In this document: in pieces, positions 2,706-57,239 of the stretch
Position numbering within the stretch: position 1 is the first letter of the stretch
Layout of the letters: the number at the start of each line of letters is the position of its first letter
Source of the DNA: Bacteroidales bacterium
GTDB lineage: Bacteria; Bacteroidota; Bacteroidia; Bacteroidales; GCA-2711565
Assembly (NCBI GenBank): GCA_963675215.1
Contig: OY775914.1
Span: forward strand, 3,672,653 to 3,736,652
Direction of reading: 5' to 3'
Length of the DNA: 64,000 bases
Position numbers and translations under genes: made by a program
Notes under the pieces: generated by a model
Told to the model about the DNA's origin: nothing
Seen by the model: only the letters and a program-made list of their open reading frames with translations
Databases searched by the model: none

Positions 2706-3524
2706 ATGCAATTCACAGTAATTGTAGTTTCAGATGGTACGGGTCGCACGGCTCAACAAGCATTAGATGCAGCACTTACTCAATTCCCGGGTGTTAAAAT
2801 CAATATTATTGTTAAAGCACATCTTCGTACTAAAAACGAAGTAAAAGAAATTATTGAAACTGCCATCGATTCTAAAGCGTTCATCTTACATACCATTGTC
2901 CAAAACGAAGTCCGACATGAACTGGTGCGATTAGGCAGAATCAAAAATATCGAAACCATTGATTTAATGGGTCCTCTTCTGGCCAGATTAGGTCATCAAT
3001 TTGAGAATAATCCGGTGCAAAAACCCGGCCTTTTCCACACAAGGAATAAAGAATATTTTCAGCGCATTGATGCCATGCAATTTGCCTTCAATCATGATGA
3101 TGGCCTGCGAGCTCATGAATTAAACAAAGCCGAAATAGTTTTAGTTGGCGTATCAAGAACTTTTAAAACGCCACTTAGCATTTACTTCGCCTACAAAGGT
3201 TGGTTTGTAGCCAATATTCCTTTAATCAAAGGGCTTAACCCTCCTGATGAACTATTTAAAATTGATCCGACAAAGGTTTTTGGCCTCACAACAACACCTG
3301 TTAGACTATCTGCTTTACGTCAGGTTCGGGAAGAACATCTTGGAGGACAAACTGGTGAATACGCCTCATTAAAACATGTGAAGGAAGAGCTTTGGTATGC
3401 AGAAAACCTGTTCAAAAACAACCCGGGTTGGTCTATAATTAAAGTAACAGGAAAGCCTATTGAAGAAATTGCATCCGAAATAATAGCTATTCTTGAACCT
3501 AAACAAAAAAAAACCATTCTTTAA
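2706..3524 (+). CDS. Pyruvate phosphate dikinase / PEP synthase regulatory protein (kinase/pyrophosphorylase, DUF299 family)
   Basis: 272 aa. P-loop-like GVSRTFKTPLS and family-typical length. Confidence 0.8.
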   Translation: MQFTVIVVSDGTGRTAQQALDAALTQFPGVKINIIVKAHLRTKNEVKEIIETAIDSKAFILHTIVQNEVRHELVRLGRIKNIETIDLMGPLLARLGHQFENNPVQKPGLFHTRNKEYFQRIDAMQFAFNHDDGLRAHELNKAEIVLVGVSRTFKTPLSIYFAYKGWFVANIPLIKGLNPPDELFKIDPTKVFGLTTTPVRLSALRQVREEHLGGQTGEYASLKHVKEELWYAENLFKNNPGWSIIKVTGKPIEEIASEIIAILEPKQKKTIL

Positions 3525-3638
3525 GTTAAAATACAATGTTTAAAAAATGATCTATTTAATTAGGCAATTTACCTATCAATATATTTCACAAACTATCATA
3601 CCTTTATCCATTGCTTAAAGAACTAATTTAAAATTAAG

Positions 3639-6002
3639 ATGCCCAAAGTATTAATAATAGATGATAAAAAAGATAATTTAATTTCTATTAAGGCGCTACT
3701 TCTTGCACTAATGAATGAGTTAGAAATTACAACTTCTTTGAGTGGCATGGAAGGAATTGAGCTTGCCAAGAAGCACAAACCTGATCTAATCCTACTCGAT
3801 ATTTCTATGCCAAAAATGGATGGCTTTGAGGTTTGCGAAAAATTAAAATCTAGCAAAGTAACGAAGCATATTCCAATAATTATGCTCACTGCCTACAAAA
3901 CGGATCAAAAGAGCAGGCAAAAAGGTCTGGAACTTGGCGCTGATGCATTCTTAACAAAACCAATTGATGAAACAGAGATCGTTTCGCAAATAAAAGTCAT
4001 GCTCAGAATAAAGGCAGCTGAAGATCACTTACGTGAAAAAAACATCGAATTACAAAAACTTGTAAAGGAAAAAACAGTTGAATTATCTGAAAAGAGTGAA
4101 CAATATAAATCACTAGTTGAAAACTCTCTTGAAGGAATGTATATCATTCAAGATGGGAAAATCCGTTTCCATAACAAAAAATTTGCAGAAATTGTAGGCT
4201 ACAAAAGCAAAACAGATTTAGTAAATAAACCTATCATGGAATTTGTAGCTAAAGAAAGTTATGATTTGGTTAACAAAATGATGAAGCGAAAATTAAGTGG
4301 CGAGCAAAAATCAACTCATTACAAATTTAAAATTCAGAAATTTGATAAAGAAATCATCATTGTAGAATCACTAGCTAATCAAATTCTTTTAGACAATAAA
4401 CCTGCTGTACAAGGTGTTCTTAGAGACATTACCGCTGTAAGCGTATTAGATGATAGTGTTCGAAAGCTTTCTCGAGCTGTAGATCAAAGCCCTGTTTCAA
4501 TCGTTATTACAGATTTGCAAGGAAAGATTGAATATGTTAATTCGGCCTATATCAATATCACAGGCTATCGTGAAGATGAATTAGTTGGCAATAGTTCAAG
4601 CATATTAAAATCCGGTCATACCAAGCCAAGTGAATACAAATCTATTTGGCAAACGATTTTAGATGGTAGAGAATGGAAGGGCGAATTCCTTAATAAGAAA
4701 AAAAGCGGTGAATTATTCTGGGAAGATGCATCAATCTCCCCGATCAAAGATCAAGAAGGAATCATCACTCATTTCCTGGGCGTTAAGCAAGACATTAGTA
4801 GAAGAAAAAGGCTGGAAAATGAACTCATTTACGCCAGAGATAAAGCAGAAGAAGCCGATCATCTAAAAACTGCTTTCTTAGCGAATATGTCTCATGAAAT
4901 CCGAACACCTATGAATGCCATCATGGGATTTTCGAACCTTTTACTCGATGAAAGCTTGACCATAGCTGACCGGGAAGAATATATTGATCTTATTAATAGC
5001 AATAGCCTTAACCTGCTTAAACTTATTGATGATATTTTTGATATTGCCCGAATTGAATCCGGAGAGTTAAAGATATCAAAGTCTGACTTTAATTTTAATG
5101 ATATACTGAATGAGATACATGCCAGTTTCAAAAAATTCACTCTAAAAAAAGGCGGGCATAGAATCGGGTTGGAAATAGTAACTCCTCATGTTCCGCATAA
5201 TGGGATGATCAAAAGTGATCCTCTAAGATTGAAGCAAGTACTATCAAATTTGGTTAGCAATGCCATTAAATACACCGAAAAGGGAAGTATAAAAATAGGA
5301 TATAATATTATTCCATCTACGGCTTCAACAAACAATTATCCCTCACTTCAGTTTTACGTAAAGGATACTGGCATAGGTATTCCACAAAATAAAATGCCAA
5401 TAATTTTTGACCGGTTCCGTCAGGCAGACGACTCACATTCGAGAGAATACGGTGGAACCGGACTAGGCTTAGCAATATCCAAAAACATAGCTCAACTACT
5501 GGGAGGAAATATTCATGCGGTTTCCAGTGTTGGCAAGGGATCGGTGTTTTATTTAACCATCCCACTCGACGAAGCAGTGGTCGACATTAAAAAAGATGAA
5601 GTGGTTCATAAACCCACAAAATCTGAATTTAATTGGGAGAATAAAAGTGTACTGGTTGCAGAAGATGTTGAATCAAATTTCCAGCTTCTGGAAACGTTAC
5701 TCAGGAAAACCAAAGTAAATATTATTTGGGTTAAAGATGGAGAAAAGGCTATCGAAACCGCAAATACAACAAAAGATATTGACTTAATCTTAATGGATAT
5801 TCAAATGCCGGTTTTGAATGGGTTTGAGGCAACAAGGGCCATAAAAAAGACTCAACCAAATATGCCAATAATTGCGGTAACTGCATTTGCATTAGAAGGC
5901 GATAGGGAAAAAATGCTCGATGCCGGATGCGATGGTTACATTTCCAAACCCATCAAATCTAAATTACTATATGAAAAATTAAGCCACTATTTAAACACCT
6001 AA
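3639..6002 (+). CDS. Hybrid sensor histidine kinase / response regulator (REC - coiled coil - 2x PAS - HisKA - HATPase - REC)
   Basis: N-terminal receiver (DLILLDISMPKMDG), H-box SHEIRTPMN, G-boxes DTGIGI and GGTGLGLAIS, C-terminal receiver (DLILMDIQMPVLNG). Confidence 0.9.
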   Translation: MPKVLIIDDKKDNLISIKALLLALMNELEITTSLSGMEGIELAKKHKPDLILLDISMPKMDGFEVCEKLKSSKVTKHIPIIMLTAYKTDQKSRQKGLELGADAFLTKPIDETEIVSQIKVMLRIKAAEDHLREKNIELQKLVKEKTVELSEKSEQYKSLVENSLEGMYIIQDGKIRFHNKKFAEIVGYKSKTDLVNKPIMEFVAKESYDLVNKMMKRKLSGEQKSTHYKFKIQKFDKEIIIVESLANQILLDNKPAVQGVLRDITAVSVLDDSVRKLSRAVDQSPVSIVITDLQGKIEYVNSAYINITGYREDELVGNSSSILKSGHTKPSEYKSIWQTILDGREWKGEFLNKKKSGELFWEDASISPIKDQEGIITHFLGVKQDISRRKRLENELIYARDKAEEADHLKTAFLANMSHEIRTPMNAIMGFSNLLLDESLTIADREEYIDLINSNSLNLLKLIDDIFDIARIESGELKISKSDFNFNDILNEIHASFKKFTLKKGGHRIGLEIVTPHVPHNGMIKSDPLRLKQVLSNLVSNAIKYTEKGSIKIGYNIIPSTASTNNYPSLQFYVKDTGIGIPQNKMPIIFDRFRQADDSHSREYGGTGLGLAISKNIAQLLGGNIHAVSSVGKGSVFYLTIPLDEAVVDIKKDEVVHKPTKSEFNWENKSVLVAEDVESNFQLLETLLRKTKVNIIWVKDGEKAIETANTTKDIDLILMDIQMPVLNGFEATRAIKKTQPNMPIIAVTAFALEGDREKMLDAGCDGYISKPIKSKLLYEKLSHYLNT

Positions 6003-45671: not shown

Positions 45672-45679
45672 AATTTTTG

Positions 45680-45764
45680 CGGAGAAAGAGGGATTCGAAC
45701 CCCCGGAGGTTTGACCCTCAACGGTTTTCAAGACCGCCGCATTCGACCACTCTGCCATTTCTCC
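45680..45764 (-). tRNA. tRNA-Ser (anticodon UGA)
   Basis: Reverse complement GGAGAAATGGCAGAGTGGTCGAATGC...GGTCTTGAAAACC...GGTTCGAATCCCTCTTTCTCCG. 7-bp acceptor stem, long variable arm, CT-TGA-AA anticodon loop. Confidence 0.9.
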
Positions 45765-52388: not shown

Positions 52389-52838
52389 ATGAATCAAAAC
52401 ATTAAAATAAAAAACAGGCGTGCAAGTTTTGAATATTTTTTGGTTGAACGTTTGATTGCCGGAATCCAATTAACAGGAACTGAAATCAAATCAATCAGAG
52501 AAGGTAAAGCAAATCTTTCAGATGCTTATTGCTCTTTTAATGGACTGGAGCTTTATGTTCGAAATATGCATATAGCCGAGTACACCATGGGAACTTATAA
52601 TAATCACGAACCCAAGCGGGATCGGAAATTATTATTGAATAAACGTGAACTTAAAAAGCTTTCGACCAAAGTAAAAGAAAAAGGATTTACAATTATTCCT
52701 GTTTCATTATTTATAAATGAAAGAGGTTTGGCAAAATTGGAGATCGCTTTAGCAAAAGGAAAGCATACCTACGACAAGAGAGAAAGTTTAAAACAAAAAG
52801 ATTCGAAACGGGAAATAGAAAGATCGCGCGAATCGTAA
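52389..52838 (+). CDS. smpB: SsrA-binding protein
   Basis: 149 aa. [26 protein letters not shown]. Confidence 0.95.
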
Positions 52839-52851
52839 CTAAATCAACACA

Positions 52852-53385
52852 ATGAAAAAATTACTAATACTTACAATTTCACTTTTTCTGGCTTTAAACA
52901 TAATGGCTCAAGACGAAGATGACTCGAAAATAAAATGGTACACTTTTGAAGAAGCCATTGATCTTTTAGAAAAAGAACCGAAAAAAGTTTTTATCGATGT
53001 TTATACCGATTGGTGTGGCTGGTGTAAGAAAATGGATAAAGATACTTTTTCACATCCCGATATTGTGAAATACATGAATAAAAACTATTACGCGGTTAAG
53101 TTTAATGCTGAAGGAACAAAACCTGTAACCTTTAAAGGCACTGAATTTATAAATGAAAACAAAGGACGTAGACCAACCCATCAATTGGCGCAAGCTTTAT
53201 TAAATGGCAGAATGTCCTATCCATCATACGTATTTATGAATGAAAAATCTGAGTTAATAACTATTGTTCCCGGGTATATGGAAGCAAAAACTTTTGATCC
53301 AATTTTACATTTTTTTGCGGAAGATAAATTTTTGACAGAAAAATGGGAAGCTTATAATGCTAAATTTGAAAGTGCGATAAAATAA
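52852..53385 (+). CDS. Secreted thioredoxin-fold protein (WCGWC)
   Basis: Signal peptide and VYTDWCGWCKKMD redox motif. Confidence 0.75.
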   Translation: MKKLLILTISLFLALNIMAQDEDDSKIKWYTFEEAIDLLEKEPKKVFIDVYTDWCGWCKKMDKDTFSHPDIVKYMNKNYYAVKFNAEGTKPVTFKGTEFINENKGRRPTHQLAQALLNGRMSYPSYVFMNEKSELITIVPGYMEAKTFDPILHFFAEDKFLTEKWEAYNAKFESAIK

Positions 53386-53398
53386 AGAGCACAAAAAA

Positions 53399-53425
53399 AG
53401 CCCACCAATATGGAGGGCTTTTTTT
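53399..53425 (+). terminator. Intrinsic terminator
   Basis: agcccacc / ggagggct stem (one mismatch) followed by a T7 run. Confidence 0.75.
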
Positions 53426-53441
53426 ATTTGTGTAAAAATGG

Positions 53442-53624
53442 TTATTGTGTTAAAACATCAAGTTTTAATGTTCTACGTTGATAAGAGATGAAGCAGAATG
53501 CTCCAGCCCCTCCACTACTATACCTCATAAAACCGGTAAAACCATACTCAGGATTTGTAATAATTTCCTTGATACTATTTCTTGAGATGAACCCTACGTT
53601 GTCTAAATAATAGTTAAAAGCCAT
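53442..53624 (-). CDS. Hypothetical 60-aa ORF (doubtful)
   Basis: ORF only. No motif, promoter or homology recognised. Lies between two terminators. Confidence 0.2.
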   Translation of the reverse strand: MAFNYYLDNVGFISRNSIKEIITNPEYGFTGFMRYSSGGAGAFCFISYQRRTLKLDVLTQ

Positions 53625-53731
53625 GATTTTCTAGTTTTAAGTTGCCTAGTTTATTCCGAAAGTCGTTAAAAGGTAACCCTCTATTTGAAAATAATTTTAA
53701 ATTTTCTTTTAAACCCTTGATATGTAGTGGT

Positions 53732-53773
53732 AAAAAAGCAGATAAAGCCTCCCACAGTTTAATGGGGAGGCTT
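53732..53773 (-). terminator. Possible distal terminator closing the tRNA-His repeat array
   Basis: Minus strand: 9-bp stem aagcctccc / gggaggctt, with a T6 run 8 nt downstream. The spacing is non-ideal. Confidence 0.4.
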
Positions 53774-53780
53774 AATGTCT

Positions 53781-54140
53781 GGGTAAATGATGGGACTTCC
53801 TCCTTCGCTTCGCTGCGGCGGATAAACTTCTCGTCCCATTCAGGATAAGATAACCTTGCACAAACAAAAAAGAGCGGCCAAAATGAACGCTCTTTAACTT
53901 GGGTGAATGATGGGACTCCCTCCTTCGCTTCGCTGCGGCGGATAAACTTCTCGTCCCTTTCAGGATAAGATAACCTTGCACAAACAAAAAAGAGCGGCCA
54001 AAATGAACGCTCTTTAACTTGAGTGAATGATGGGACTTCCTCCTTCGCTTCGCTGCGGCGGATAAACTTCTCGTCCCTTTCAGGATAAGATAACCTTGCA
54101 CAAACAAAAAAGAGCGGCCAAAATGAACGCTCTTTAACTT
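53781..54140 (-). repeat. Three tandem 120-bp repeats distal to tRNA-His, each containing a copy of the 3'-terminal 17 nt of the tRNA plus a terminator hairpin
   Basis: Units at 53781-53900, 53901-54020 and 54021-54140 align position for position, with 2-3 mismatches per 120 nt between neighbours. Each starts (plus strand) g[g/a]gt[g/a]aatgatgggact, the same as the tRNA-His gene 3' end at 54141-54157. Confidence 0.95.
54104..54133 (-). terminator. Intrinsic terminator immediately after tRNA-His (repeated at 53984-54013 and 53864-53893)
   Basis: Minus strand: AGAGCG-TTCATTTTGGC-CGCTCT followed by TTTTTTG, starting 8 nt after the tRNA 3' end. Confidence 0.6.
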
Positions 54141-54141
54141 G

Positions 54142-54216
54142 GGTGAATGATGGGACTCGAACCCACGACCCCCGGAACCACAATCCAGTGCTCTAACCAA
54201 CTGAGCTACAATCACC
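54142..54216 (-). tRNA. tRNA-His (anticodon GUG) with encoded G-1
   Basis: Reverse complement G-GTGATTG-TA-GCTC-AGTTGGTTA-GAGC-A-CTGGA-TTGTGGT-TCCGG-GGGTC-GTGGG-TTCGAGT-CCCAT-CATTCAC-C. G-1:C73 is typical of bacterial tRNA-His. One U-U mismatch in the acceptor stem. Confidence 0.88.
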
Positions 54217-54230
54217 ATTTTTAAGGAGTG

Positions 54231-54238
54231 CAAATATA
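54231..54238 (-). promoter_or_regulatory. -7 promoter motif TATATTTG for tRNA-His
   Basis: Exact TAnnTTTG on the minus strand, 14 nt upstream of G-1. Confidence 0.45.
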
Positions 54239-54344
54239 CAATAATAATTTTTATTTAATAAAATTTTTAATCCAAAAAAAATATTGAGAACACTACTTAA
54301 ATTAGCCTTTTAATTACATTTGTATTTATTCATTAACTGCATCC

Positions 54345-55586
54345 ATGTTATTTAGAAGAAAAGCATATACAACAGGCACCTCACTTTCAAAACTGGCATG
54401 GAAGAAGTTATTAAATAATAAGATTGGTATTGGCTCCTTAATTTTTATTGTGCTTATTTTGATTGTAACCATACTTGGTTATCTCATCACTCCCGACTCG
54501 TCGCCCTATGCAAATTCTCAATCGCTAGAACTGGCTTCACTAAAACCCGGGAGCAGGATCAATGTATTAAATGTTACTCAGAACAGATTCCGGTCGAGAA
54601 AGAATTTGATTCAAAAGATGTTATTTGGGCAAACATTAAATTATGATGCCATCTCCTATTCTGCTTATAAATTCGAAGCTGACAAGATCATATTAACTGA
54701 ATTCGCGCAAGATTCAATAAGTGACCTTCAAGAATTTGTTTTTCTGCTTGCGGACGTATACGAATCAATCCTCCTCAATACTTATTTATATGATCATGAG
54801 GAAAACACAGTGAGTTACTTAACAGTTGATTCCATAAATAAAAGCTACACAGTTATTGATTTACAAAGATTAGTTTCAGAAAAACACCTAACAACCAAAT
54901 CCTTTTTACTTGGTTCCGATCGCTATGGACGAGATTACCTCAGCCGTTTGATGATTGGAGCCAGGGTTAGCCTTTCTGTAGGATTCATCTCAGTATCCAT
55001 TGCACTTCTTATTGGTATTTTATTAGGCTCATTAGCAGGCTTCTTTCGTTCGTGGATCGATCATTTAATTGTTTGGCTAATCAATGTCGTATGGTCGATT
55101 CCAACATTACTTTTGGTCATCGCAATAACTTTTGCACTTGGTCGTGGATTTTGGCAGGTTTTTATCGCTGTTGGGTTAACCATGTGGGTTGAAATCGCCC
55201 GAATTGTGCGAGGGCAAATACTCACCATACGAGAGAAAGAATATGTTGAAGCTGGAAAAGCATTGGGATTTAAAAACTTTCGAATCATTTTTAATCACAT
55301 CCTGCCCAATATTATGAGCCCGATAATTGTAATCTCGGCAGCTAATTTTGCTGCAGCTATTTTAATTGAAGCGGGGTTAAGTTTTCTTGGGATAGGTGTT
55401 CAACCACCCATGCCTTCGTGGGGAACCATGATTAAAGAAAACTATGCTTACATTATTTTAGATTCTGCTTATTTGGCTATTTTACCGGGCATTGCCATCA
55501 TGTTAATGGTTTTAGCCTTTATGTTGCTAGGCAATAGTTTAAGAGAAGCTTTGGATGTTAAAACCAAAAATAAAGTTGACCCATAA
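54345..55586 (+). CDS. ABC transporter permease, peptide/nickel (DppC/OppC) type, with a long N-terminal extracytoplasmic loop
   Basis: 413 aa. EAA-like loop EYVEAGKALGFKNFRIIFNHILPN and BPD_transp_1-type TM layout. No partner ABC genes are adjacent. Confidence 0.85.
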   Translation: MLFRRKAYTTGTSLSKLAWKKLLNNKIGIGSLIFIVLILIVTILGYLITPDSSPYANSQSLELASLKPGSRINVLNVTQNRFRSRKNLIQKMLFGQTLNYDAISYSAYKFEADKIILTEFAQDSISDLQEFVFLLADVYESILLNTYLYDHEENTVSYLTVDSINKSYTVIDLQRLVSEKHLTTKSFLLGSDRYGRDYLSRLMIGARVSLSVGFISVSIALLIGILLGSLAGFFRSWIDHLIVWLINVVWSIPTLLLVIAITFALGRGFWQVFIAVGLTMWVEIARIVRGQILTIREKEYVEAGKALGFKNFRIIFNHILPNIMSPIIVISAANFAAAILIEAGLSFLGIGVQPPMPSWGTMIKENYAYIILDSAYLAILPGIAIMLMVLAFMLLGNSLREALDVKTKNKVDP

Positions 55587-55669
55587 GCGCTGAAGACCTT
55601 AGCAATGAAGTAATTTAACAGCCTTCAATTTAATAAGAAATAATTTGGATTATTTTAATAAAAAAATAT

Positions 55670-55677
55670 TACCTTTG
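55670..55677 (+). promoter_or_regulatory. -7 promoter motif TACCTTTG for tRNA-Leu
   Basis: Exact TAnnTTTG, 23 nt upstream of the tRNA 5' end. Confidence 0.45.
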
Positions 55678-55700
55678 CAGACCTAAAAACGACCATGAAT

Positions 55701-55782
55701 GCGGATGTGGCGTAATTGGTAGCCGCGCTAGACTTAGGATCTAGTGCCGAGAGGCGTGGGGGTTCGAGTCCCTTCATCCGCA
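55701..55782 (+). tRNA. tRNA-Leu (anticodon UAG)
   Basis: GCGGATG acceptor / CATCCGC-A, CTAGA-CTTAGGA-TCTAG anticodon arm, long variable arm, GGTTCGAGTCC T-loop. Confidence 0.9.
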
Positions 55783-55793
55783 CAAAAAATGAA

Positions 55794-55826
55794 AACCTTA
55801 GTTCCGAAAAAGGGCTAAGGTTTTTT
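55794..55826 (+). terminator. Intrinsic terminator after tRNA-Leu
   Basis: 8-bp stem aaccttag / ctaaggtt followed by a T-run. Confidence 0.8.
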
Positions 55827-55862
55827 AAATAACTGAAACTCAGTAATTATAAATTTTATATT

Positions 55863-55870
55863 TATCTTTG
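55863..55870 (+). promoter_or_regulatory. -7 promoter motif TATCTTTG for tig
   Basis: Exact TAnnTTTG, 25 nt upstream of the ATG at 55896. Confidence 0.5.
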
Positions 55871-55895
55871 CAGCTCCATTTAAAACTCATCATTA

Positions 55896-57239
55896 ATGAA
55901 TATTACACAGGAAAAGTCAAGTGATCTTACAGCAATTATTAAAATTGAATTAGTAAAGGAAGATTATCAGGAAAAAGTAAAAACGGTTTTAAAAGATTAC
56001 CAGAAAAAAGCAAACATTCCAGGATTTCGTCCGGGCAAAGTTCCTTTTGGCATGGTTGATAAAATGTATGGCAAAGCTGTTTTAGCAGAAGAAATTAATA
56101 AACTAATTTCTGATTCGCTTAACCAATACATTGTTGATGAAAAAATTGACATCTTGGGATATCCATTACCCAACCTTGAAAAAACTACTGAATTAGATTT
56201 TGACACGCAGGAAAAATTTGATTTCTTTTTCGATATCGGATTGACACCGGAGTTTGATATCGCCATTGATGATAAATTCAAAGTAAAATATTACAATATT
56301 AAGGCTGACGAAGACGTGGTAAATAAATATCTCGCTGACTTAAGAAACAGAAATGGGAAAACCACCAAACCTGAGACAGCTGAAGAAACAGATGTTTTAT
56401 TTGGTGATTTTACCGAAGTAAATAATGAAGATGGCTTGAAAGGTTCGGCACAATTAAAACTTGAAAGTGTAAAATTAAAAACAGCCTTAAAGCAATTTAT
56501 TGGTGCAAAAGTTGGAGACCAAATCACATTTGATCCGACAAAAGCACTTAAAAGTGATATTGAAGTTGCTACCTTATTAGGCATCAGGCCTGAAGAAGCA
56601 GAAGCATTCAAAAATGAAATTGAATTTACAGTTACAGAAATAAGCAGAACTGAACCTGCTGAGTTAAATGAAGAATTCTATAAGATGGTTTACCCTCAAG
56701 ACAAAATTGAGAACGAGGATCAGCTAAAAGAAAGAATCAAAAAAGATGCAGAAATTTCATTTGCCTCAGAAAGCGATCGACAATTTATGAACAATGCTGT
56801 TGAACTATTAATTGAAAAAGCAGATATTTCTGTTCCTGATGAATTTTTGAAAAGATGGTTACTGGAAAATAATCAGGATAGAGTTACCCCGGAACAATTA
56901 GAAACTCAGTACGACAGTTATATTAAATCACTTAAGTGGCAGTTGATTGAGAGCAAGCTTGTGAAAGGAAATAATATTGAAGTTAAAGAAGAAGAAGTCA
57001 GAGATCATATCAAAGGTTATTTCATGAATATGACCATGCCTGGAGCAGAATCAAATGAAAATGACAACCGTATGAATGAAATCGTTAATTCGGTAATGCA
57101 AAATAAAGAAGAAGTTAAAAAGATTTACGATCAGCTTTATGATAAAAAGCTTTTAGATTTCCTCAAAGCAAATATTAAGCAAACCAAGAAAGAAGTCAAT
57201 TACGAGGAATTTGTTAAATTAGCAACACAAATTAAATAG
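55896..57239 (+). CDS. tig: Trigger factor
   Basis: 447 aa. Ribosome-binding signature region GFRPGKVP. Position upstream of clpP-clpX. Confidence 0.92.
   Translation: MNITQEKSSDLTAIIKIELVKEDYQEKVKTVLKDYQKKANIPGFRPGKVPFGMVDKMYGKAVLAEEINKLISDSLNQYIVDEKIDILGYPLPNLEKTTELDFDTQEKFDFFFDIGLTPEFDIAIDDKFKVKYYNIKADEDVVNKYLADLRNRNGKTTKPETAEETDVLFGDFTEVNNEDGLKGSAQLKLESVKLKTALKQFIGAKVGDQITFDPTKALKSDIEVATLLGIRPEEAEAFKNEIEFTVTEISRTEPAELNEEFYKMVYPQDKIENEDQLKERIKKDAEISFASESDRQFMNNAVELLIEKADISVPDEFLKRWLLENNQDRVTPEQLETQYDSYIKSLKWQLIESKLVKGNNIEVKEEEVRDHIKGYFMNMTMPGAESNENDNRMNEIVNSVMQNKEEVKKIYDQLYDKKLLDFLKANIKQTKKEVNYEEFVKLATQIK

Follow-up and report, generated by a model that had tools for sequence, protein, structure and literature searches.

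A candidate RtT-like element in three tandem copies behind the tRNA-His gene of a Bacteroidales bacterium

Why is a bacterial tRNA gene followed by three further copies of its own 3′ end, each closing a 120-bp unit? The question is raised by a 64,000-nt stretch of DNA from an uncultured Bacteroidales bacterium (lineage GCA-2711565; assembly GCA_963675215.1, contig OY775914.1, positions 3,672,653 to 3,736,652 of the forward strand), hereafter called the window. Its minus strand carries a tRNA-His(GUG) gene at 54141-54215, called by ARAGORN and by Rfam RF00005 (61.7 bits), and three 120-bp units lie head to tail behind this gene at 53781-54140. On balance, we favor the explanation that these tandem units are three copies of an element distantly related to RtT, which is repeated in the Escherichia coli tyrT-tyrV operon, and that the array was amplified by unequal recombination. 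Other loci that were compared with the window are cited by number (L001 and so on).

The tRNA gene and three repeats carrying tRNA 3′ ends had been described in the original prediction, which was made from the letters of the DNA, and ARAGORN, Rfam, Tandem Repeats Finder (TRF) and a count of the tRNA-derived 17-mer bore out this description. TRF returned a period of 120 bp with 3.2 copies, 97% matches and a score of 723 over 53780-54158. When one mismatch is allowed, the 17 nt at the 3′ end of the tRNA, AGTCCCATCATTCACCC, are found four times, at 54141, 54021, 53901 and 53781 (chance expectation 0.07), and the inner 39-mer of the unit occurs three times exactly. The gene's G-1 is at 54216, and its CCA is not gene-encoded. 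Based on TRF and the unit alignment, unit 1 occupies 54021-54140, unit 2 53901-54020 and unit 3 53781-53900, all on the minus strand. The three units differ at four positions in total (unit positions 63, 103, 116 and 119), which amounts to 1-2 mismatches per unit and not the 2-3 given before; unit 3, which was also folded, carries A63T and C116T. Each unit ends in a copy of tRNA positions 58-74 (AGTCCCATCATTCACTC), located by the 17-mer search at 54021-54037, 53901-53917 and 53781-53797.

Two hairpins precede this copy. The first is terminator-like (AAAGAGCG, an 11-nt loop, CGCTCTTT) and was located by folding at 54106-54135 in unit 1, 53986-54015 in unit 2 and 53866-53895 in unit 3. It has an 8-bp stem and a T6 run made up of the last three stem bases and three further T, with a predicted energy of −12.6 kcal/mol (z = −2.1 for the 50-nt segment). 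Its 11-nt loop exceeds the 8-nt limit of the consensus terminator scanner, which places it outside that scanner's reach. Homologous hairpins are found in L001, L191, L231 and L240. The second hairpin, the RtT-like one, spans 54023-54083 in unit 1 (57.4 bits, E = 2e-12, with the covariance model R1 introduced below; also folded), 53903-53963 in unit 2 (54.9 bits, E = 9e-12) and 53783-53843 in unit 3 (60.5 bits, E = 3e-13; fold z = −2.57). In unit 1 it consists of an arm, GGGAC (54073-54077), a bulge, GAGAAGTTTA (54063-54072), an inner helix, TCCGCC/GGAGGA, then A58 and GTCCCAT. The bulge, of the type GAGAAGUUUA, is 10 nt long, and the outer helix has 5 bp in units 1 and 2 and 7 bp in unit 3, where A63T lengthens it. 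The details listed at the outset are present: AGAGCG-N11-CGCTCT with T6, GGGAC...GTCCC enclosing TCCGCC/GGAGGA, two open frames (189 and 153 aa) and, at 53745-53773, a hairpin unlike these. Folding, which had been suggested as a check, gave a divided answer: the whole 120-nt unit had z of about 0, no better than shuffled sequence, and only the sub-hairpins stood out. An Rfam scan of the window reported tRNAs and terminator look-alikes only.

Knowledge of the E. coli tyrT 178-bp repeats goes back to the late 1970s; that of their RNA product, rtT, dates from 1991. The repeats of the tyrT-tyrV operon were reportedly described by Egan and Landy in 1978, and Bosl and Kersten are said to have found in 1991 that rtT is a stable RNA released from the tyrT primary transcript. 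To our knowledge, neither the repeats nor rtT has an accepted function. In the K-12 annotation, rtT comes from the tyrT transcript and ends at the CCA of the copy.

The comparison with tyrT, already drawn in the original prediction, proved stronger than had been claimed. The K-12 178-bp unit reads ...GGGGAAGGAT GAGAAGCTT ... AAT CCTTCCCCCACCACCA. Reverse-complementing tRNA-Tyr positions 59-68 (ATCCTTCCCC) gives exactly the arm GGGGAAGGAT, and GAGAAGCTT comes directly after this arm. The Rfam RtT model, RF00391, run on K-12 tyrT-tyrV as a positive control, gave four matches of 133-137 bits; in its structure line this outer helix recurs, and the next nine positions, GAGAAcCUU, are unpaired. The bulge of E. 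coli RtT reads GAGAAGCUU. Right behind the arm, on its 3′ side, an unpaired bulge of the form GAGAAG(YYUR) reads GAGAAGTTTA in the window, GAGAAGCCTG in L231, L234 and L240, and GAGAAGCTTC in E. coli. The form GAGAAGCCTG, from the window's own lineage, bridges the motif between TTTA and CTTC. The broad RtT architecture is present in the window: an element on the same strand and immediately 3′ of the tRNA, a copy from A58 to the 3′ end, an arm helix, a bulge and variable tandem repetition. Both elements stand behind a tRNA gene in about three tandem copies, with a copy number that varies among strains; in both, the unit ends with the tRNA 3′ end from A58, an arm pairs with the copy (tRNA 59-68 in E. 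coli), and the GAGAAG bulge is followed by inner helices. They differ in the tRNA (Tyr versus His), the host group (Gammaproteobacteria versus Bacteroidota) and the unit length (178 versus 120 bp). A multi-helix region of about 90 nt in RtT contrasts with a single simple inner hairpin in the window, where every unit in addition holds an intrinsic-terminator-like hairpin. The copy in the window lacks CCA, which the tRNA gene does not encode, whereas the E. coli copy is 19 nt long including CCA.

Is the hairpin a peculiarity of this locus? The word GGGAYGAGAAGTTT, common to the window and L001, anchored a metagenome scan, which returned mostly chance matches. From about 19 distinct loci of one architecture we built the covariance model R1, which gave true units at least 46.7 bits and pattern-only matches at most 25 bits. 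In these loci the tRNA is followed by a trailer, which is often an intrinsic terminator, and, after a short spacer, by the 5′ arm, the unpaired GAGAAGUUUA, a variable hairpin, an A, and the tRNA copy from A58 to the 3′ end. The loci adjoin tRNA-His, Asp, Glu, Ser, Thr and Gly, and in every unit the copied 3′ end is that of the adjoining tRNA. Positions 59-65 of the local tRNA copy are complementary to the 5′ arm, which often reaches into the acceptor strand (arm and copy being, for example, CGATGGGAC/GTCCCATCG, CGCTGGGAC/GTCCCAGCG and CCCGAAGGGAC/GTCCCTTCGGG). The arms track the tRNA: CCCAT/ATGGG, CCCAG/CTGGG, CCCTT/AAGGG and CCTTC/GAAGG. A58 is invariant in the alignment (A1).

Since GGGA, TCCC and GAGAAGTT were imposed by the search pattern, only the remaining positions count as independent evidence. 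In the outer helix, 77.9% of the cells are paired, compared with 67.7 ± 1.9% in shuffles, and its covariation score was reached by none of 500 shuffles; the closing pair is UA in 11 cases, CG in 9 and GC in 1, and is never broken. The two-helix model has 83.8% of cells paired versus 68.9% when shuffled (again 0 of 500 shuffles), and five of the six inner-helix pairs have changed on both sides. Seven of the eight hairpins folded were more stable than their shuffles (z from −1.5 to −5.9), L148a being the exception at +0.78. Within the window's lineage, the hairpin is better conserved than the trailer when the window is compared with L240, and L234 retains a perfect inner helix, TCCGCCA/TGGCGGA. 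We had considered an inverted segment between the window and L001; this was rejected, as both are degenerate forms of the ancestral TCCGCCA/TGGCGGA helix preserved in L234.

RtT-like units also occur at several places in single metagenomes, Ga0209542 (L135, L139, L148) and Ga0210057 (L144, L176), and at least four tRNA genes of one population seem to be followed by them. When units at different tRNAs of one metagenome are compared, the trailer of about 47 nt is near-identical and the core is conserved, and the arms are tRNA-specific. The 47-nt trailer hairpins of L139 and L148b are identical at 46 positions and lack a T-run.

Relatives of the locus, extended through a small open reading frame (ORF) downstream of the slot that receives the array, were then compared for copy number, as the original prediction had proposed, and zero, one, at least two or three units were found. 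The slot is empty in L034 and L229. It holds one unit in L001, in L231-233 (three samples) and, at least one, in L240, whose contig begins just upstream; at least two in L242; and three in the window and in L234 (three 126-bp units in a 1.96-Mb contig). When the 360-bp array is removed, the window is colinear with L034, its closest relative (85% permease identity), at 86.7% identity over 511 nt, and the array is thus a clean presence/absence difference between the two. The tRNA-His gene and its promoter block are 100% identical in L034. Behind the third unit, at 53745-53773 on the minus strand and outside the repeat, stands a CCTCCCC/GGGAGG hairpin (AAGCCTCCCCA...TGGGAGGCTT; fold z = −3.05) that directly follows tRNA-His in L034 and L229 and represents the ancestral terminator. 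Contigs of three other samples break inside the L234 array. Because the slot takes the states 0, 1, at least 2 and 3 across relatives, and because three further samples support the L234 array, the array is real and its copy number is labile. In E. coli, a genome has 1-9 places that match the 178-bp unit, with a median of 2; at this sensitivity, no match was obtained in 700 of 5,426 complete genomes, and 18 of the matching places are on plasmids.

How might such a unit work and multiply? It starts with a terminator-like hairpin, which would serve the preceding tRNA or the preceding copy of the tRNA end, followed by a spacer. The second hairpin is made up of an outer helix (the arm with copy positions 59-65 and beyond), the bulge GAGAAGUUUA, which is conserved and unpaired, and an inner helix that varies, and the unit ends in the single-stranded remainder of the acceptor 3′ strand. 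This hairpin would act as a nucleic-acid structure on the tRNA-sense strand, most likely as a read-through RNA in the manner of E. coli rtT. The copied tRNA 3′ end would form the closing helix and, at the same time, give the RNA a 3′ terminus of tRNA type, open to trimming by tRNA 3′-processing enzymes. A first unit, flanked by direct repeats of the tRNA 3′ end, could grow or shrink by unequal recombination or replication slippage; around the single unit in L001 and L231, the direct repeats contain, in addition, a second terminator of the same type. Exchange or slippage between such repeats would give tandem arrays and precise deletions without a dedicated enzyme. We infer amplification by unequal recombination because the units are near-identical along their whole length, because relatives form the 0, 1, at least 2, 3 series, and because E. 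coli genomes have 1-9 places; the earlier suggestion of unequal recombination seeded by the tRNA 3′ end fits this variation. By analogy with rtT, an RNA role for the hairpin has modest support from the compensatory changes in both helices, the 8:1 ratio of G·U to A·C in the inner helix and the stability relative to shuffles. The terminator-like hairpins probably keep the distal units of the window poorly expressed, as the original prediction suspected.

Several observations weigh against this explanation. RF00391 gave no match at E ≤ 10 on 52500-56500 of the window or on nine loci with related units (gathering threshold 45 bits), and R1 in turn misses E. coli RtT, in which the inner region has about 65 nt more. 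Since the gap is crossed by neither model, the link rests on a shared architecture and a 6-9-nt motif at the same structural position, without intermediates. The conservation of the GAGAAGTT bulge core is independent of the search pattern only in the window, L001, L231/L234/L240 and E. coli. G·U and A·C mismatches stand at 12:10 overall, which is no excess, and at 8:1 in the inner helix only. Every hairpin in this lineage lies 3′ of a terminator-like hairpin with a T-run, no promoter (TAnnTTTG) was seen by eye inside the unit, and the hairpin may act at the DNA level. Finally, unequal recombination accounts for the amplification and not for the tRNA-matched arms at different tRNAs. We consider the array best filed as a divergent, Rfam-invisible, tandem-amplified variant of the RtT kind of element.

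The matched arms bring in the strongest alternative, in which the units are miniature non-autonomous mobile cassettes. Each would have been inserted singly into the tRNA-His 3′ end by hairpin-directed or site-specific recombination that regenerates its target, in the manner of attC/attI or of integrative mobile elements exploiting Xer (IMEX), and the array would be a stack of insertions. We regard this as possible but doubtful. It has in its favor that the slot is an insertion hotspot, in which GIY-YIG cassettes (L002, L003, L239 and L234) and a larger insert (L238) each end in a T-stem mimic and a copy of the tRNA 3′ end. The order of the inserts also fits a newest insert beside the tRNA in the window and in L234: the GIY-YIG cassette of L234 lies between the tRNA and the RtT-like array, and the array of the window lies between the tRNA and the old terminator. 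The near-identical trailer and conserved core joined to tRNA-specific arms at different tRNAs of one metagenome point the same way. According to a mobilome-sequencing preprint on E. coli, the tyrT-rttR region is covered more highly in exonuclease-resistant DNA under stress (bioRxiv 10.1101/2024.07.17.603846). On the other side, no recombinase, Y1 transposase or GIY-YIG gene was found in the 64-kb window; no copy was found on phages or plasmids, and none as a viral attP. Neither a free or circular form, nor an insertion event, nor an empty and filled pair at a second tRNA was observed. The order argument is based on two loci, and the near-identity of the units over their full length is explicable by tandem duplication without an enzyme.

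The genes searched are as follows. The 19 proteins encoded in 39.6-63.2 kb all have housekeeping roles (among them SmpB, trigger factor, ClpP, ClpX and a thioredoxin-like protein), and none is a recombinase, in keeping with the earlier remark that no integrase is nearby, and phmmer found no homolog of a Y1 transposase, a GIY-YIG nuclease or an IS21 transposase (IstA) among 310 six-frame ORFs of the 64-kb window. The exact 39-mer had no match in viral contigs, the degenerate motif had no attP-like form there, and BLAST searches with the unit, the check proposed at the outset, found no match on phages or plasmids. Of 27 matches to the degenerate motif in viral contigs, 25 represent one unrelated phage coding sequence and two are real units in host tRNA loci at prophage edges. 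The phage sequence (...PRDEKFIVKVDGKEIEVPKEEL..., in L201, L203-L209 and L211-L227) fits the degenerate pattern by chance, with 20-25 bits for R1, and PRDEKFIVKVDGKEIEVPKEEL is a useful negative control for motif searches.

The inserts that share the slot deserve description in their own right. GIY-YIG cassettes lie in the same tRNA-His 3′ slot in L002 (3300-3885), L003 (3390-3854), L234 (1487-2000) and L239 (1-700). Each has a CCTCCCC terminator and an ORF that encodes about 90 aa and matches GIY-YIG (PF01541, E about 1e-17). The structured tail, 85-110 nt long, shows compensatory changes between loci, and each cassette ends in a T-arm mimic joined to a copied tRNA 3′ end. A direct repeat of about 66 bp flanks the cassettes of L002 and L239; the terminator and the first 8-9 nt of the ORF belong to this repeat. 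The larger insert in the same slot of L238 (171-2500) has a 618-aa ORF, which gave no Pfam match, four GTGGCACTGTTAGAAMC iterons and a junction between GGTGGGAT and TCCCATCTTTCACCC; from its sequence it looks like a conventional integrative element at tRNA-His. In L191, an IS21 element (rve and IstB) is inserted just 5′ of the RtT-like unit at 450-2806, and an IS200-like Y1 transposase ORF (PF01797, E = 1e-6) lies just downstream of the locus at 3193-3759. Y1 enzymes act on DNA hairpins. L191 was considered as a long, cargo-carrying form of the unit and was rejected as an IS21 insertion.

A version of the mobile explanation in which the units are scars of a classical integrase was also proposed earlier, as stacked attachment sites. 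A direct repeat of the tRNA 3′ end does flank the inserted DNA, and the idea that the tRNA-His 3′ end is an insertion hotspot stood up. Integrase scars as such are not supported: the units are 120 bp long with a structured hairpin, no recombinase was found in the window, the unit had no match on phages or plasmids, and the copies on viral contigs are host tRNA loci at prophage edges. Williams is said to have classified in 2002 the att sites that target the part of tRNA genes from the T-loop to the 3′ end. The array resembles such sites in its direct repeats from the T-loop to the gene end, in the possibility of tandem accretion and in the other inserts found in the same slot of relatives. It differs in that only 103 bp, encoding nothing, lie between the repeats, that no integrase was found in the window, and that a conserved hairpin takes the place of arm-type sites. 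The L238 insert, by contrast with the array units, shows iterons.

Two other classes of mobile DNA offer partial likenesses. Integron attC sites, cassette arrays and elements that exploit Xer, such as CTX phage, share, by analogy only, a bulged imperfect hairpin as the site and head-to-tail stacking at a regenerated site. They differ in that no integron integrase, no R or L box (GTTRRRY was unmatched) and no evidence of recombination activity were found here, and we claim no membership. Repetitive extragenic palindromic (REP) sequences and bacterial interspersed mosaic elements (BIMEs), or repeats like miniature inverted-repeat transposable elements, are likewise short non-coding hairpin elements with several copies per genome (as in L135, L139 and L148, from one metagenome), and a Y1 ORF stands beside the L191 unit. 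Unlike REP/BIME, the element described here is tied strictly to tRNA 3′ ends, its arms are dictated by the adjacent tRNA, and the window lacks a Y1 transposase. On the RNA side, 3′ETS-leuZ of E. coli is an example of a small RNA released from tRNA operon spacers or trailers. By analogy, the RtT-like hairpin could be an RNA by-product of tRNA precursor processing with a possibly acquired function. RNAs of the 3′ETS-leuZ type differ in that they lack a copy of the tRNA 3′ end, are unrepeated and act as base-pairing sponges.

Another explanation traces the units to the tRNA gene itself. If they were decaying partial tRNA duplications (T-arm and acceptor 3′ strand), functionless and unrelated to RtT, the motif would be a coincidence. 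The arm does include a T-stem-5′-like ATGGG, the copy begins at A58, and displaced tRNA remnants behind the GIY-YIG cassettes do resemble decaying T-arms. However, the arm complementarity reaches acceptor positions 66-69, an extent found in no tRNA (11 bp in L151, 9 bp in L121 and L202, 10 bp in E. coli), the bulge and inner helix are conserved across phyla with compensatory changes, and between the window and L240 the trailer has diverged more than the hairpin. We therefore consider this explanation highly improbable.

Protein coding is a still weaker candidate. The repeats might belong to a gene using the 189-aa or 153-aa frame of the tRNA strand, comparable to the E. coli tpr peptide; the period is a multiple of 3, two frames stay open, and the tpr start codon is the AUG inside GGAUGAGAAG. 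Yet no Pfam family and no homolog of the translated units among 5.8 billion proteins was found, and the L001 unit has in-frame stops. Members of the family have ACG or AGG for the AUG, about half have TGA at codon 6, and the frame of the conserved nucleotides GCGAAGCGAA is not the same in the window as in L191. We rate a coding origin as barely credible. In E. coli K-12 (1287087-1287176; L228), tpr, the 'protamine-like protein', is annotated to start at the AUG within GGAUGAGAAG, a conserved part of RtT. The position reads AUG, ACG or AGG across the family, in an unconserved frame, which casts doubt on tpr as a real gene.

That a single unit was multiplied by faulty assembly, a refutation once foreseen, is scarcely conceivable: tandem repeats are prone to mis-assembly and relatives' contigs break inside arrays (L235-237, L242), but the copies differ at four positions, an independent three-unit array lies inside the 1.96-Mb contig L234 with the support of three other samples, and real variation exists in complete E. 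coli genomes. Self-cleaving ribozymes (hammerhead, hairpin and pistol) were rejected, since the helices are coaxially nested without a three-way junction and the core motifs do not match; a tRNA primer-binding site on the opposite strand was rejected as well, since the complement excludes CCA and there is no reverse-transcriptase context.

The RtT-like explanation, which we prefer, would have consequences beyond the window. If the window and the roughly 19 loci belong with RtT, the element would be a general accessory of bacterial tRNA genes, occurring with at least seven tRNA species (Tyr in E. coli besides the six found here) and in two or more phyla. Its core would be simple and definable: an arm matched to the tRNA, the GAGAAG bulge and an inner helix. 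The question of what RtT does would become open to comparison across genomes, tRNAs, co-occurring proteins and readers of the bulge. Annotators would gain a reason for the short ORFs and 'extra tRNA 3′ ends' behind tRNA genes. The tRNA 3′ end would also be a small-scale insertion hotspot common to RtT-like units and GIY-YIG cassettes.

A bolder extension can be put forward, although we think it unlikely. RtT-like hairpins may be widespread, so far unrecognized, retargetable mini-elements, in which a conserved body (the trailer and the GAGAAG hairpin core) disperses among tRNA genes, always joined to an arm matching local tRNA positions 59-69 and to a fresh copy of the 3′ end. The tRNA 3′ end would then be a regenerating cassette site shared with the GIY-YIG cassettes, and the arm would be a guide that specifies the target.

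In the literature searched, we found no description of the wider RtT-like pattern (many tRNAs, at least two phyla) or of a tRNA 3′ slot shared with GIY-YIG cassettes. No mechanism for E. coli rtT was offered there, and RtT was treated as an enterobacterial curiosity. Nor did that literature describe RtT-like elements in bacteria other than enterobacteria or behind other tRNAs. In Klebsiella, RtT is annotated at a second gene cluster as well (PMC4147364).

The surroundings of the locus hold further features. Within the window, the element is specific to tRNA-His: the other tRNA genes, Ser(UGA) at 45679-45764 and Leu(UAG) at 55701-55783, have neither a duplicated 3′ end nor an R1 match. Upstream of tRNA-His, a promoter-like TATATTTG box stands at 54231-54238 on the minus strand, within the block identical in L034. 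We take it to be of the Bacteroidota −7 type (consensus TAnnTTTG). The OppC-type permease that adjoins the tRNA gene has orthologs in 80 Bacteroidales loci of metagenome-assembled genomes, many of them with tRNA-His beside the permease. In a tRNA cluster beside the RtT-like unit of L121, a match to YrlA (Y RNA-like, RF02553) at 439-558 scored 45 bits, below its gathering threshold of 69.

At the distal edge of the variable slot lies a conserved 60-aa ORF (53442-53624, minus strand), which is given for context only and is present in all relatives of the locus. Homologs of this ORF (MAFNYYLDNVGF..., region 53442-53700, minus strand) formed nine clusters only, all from this lineage, and Pfam gave no family for it. 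Between the thioredoxin-like gene and the small ORF, at 53391-53454, a strong bidirectional terminator hairpin, AAAAAGCCCTCCATATTGGTGGGCTTTTTTT, had sub-threshold Rfam matches to leader-peptide and small RNA families (Phe_leader at 32 bits versus a gathering threshold of 55), which we read as terminator look-alikes. A strongly conserved non-coding block, GAGGGTTACCTTTT ... CGGAATAAACTAGGCAAC ... AAAACTAGAA, stands 5′ of the 60-aa ORF.

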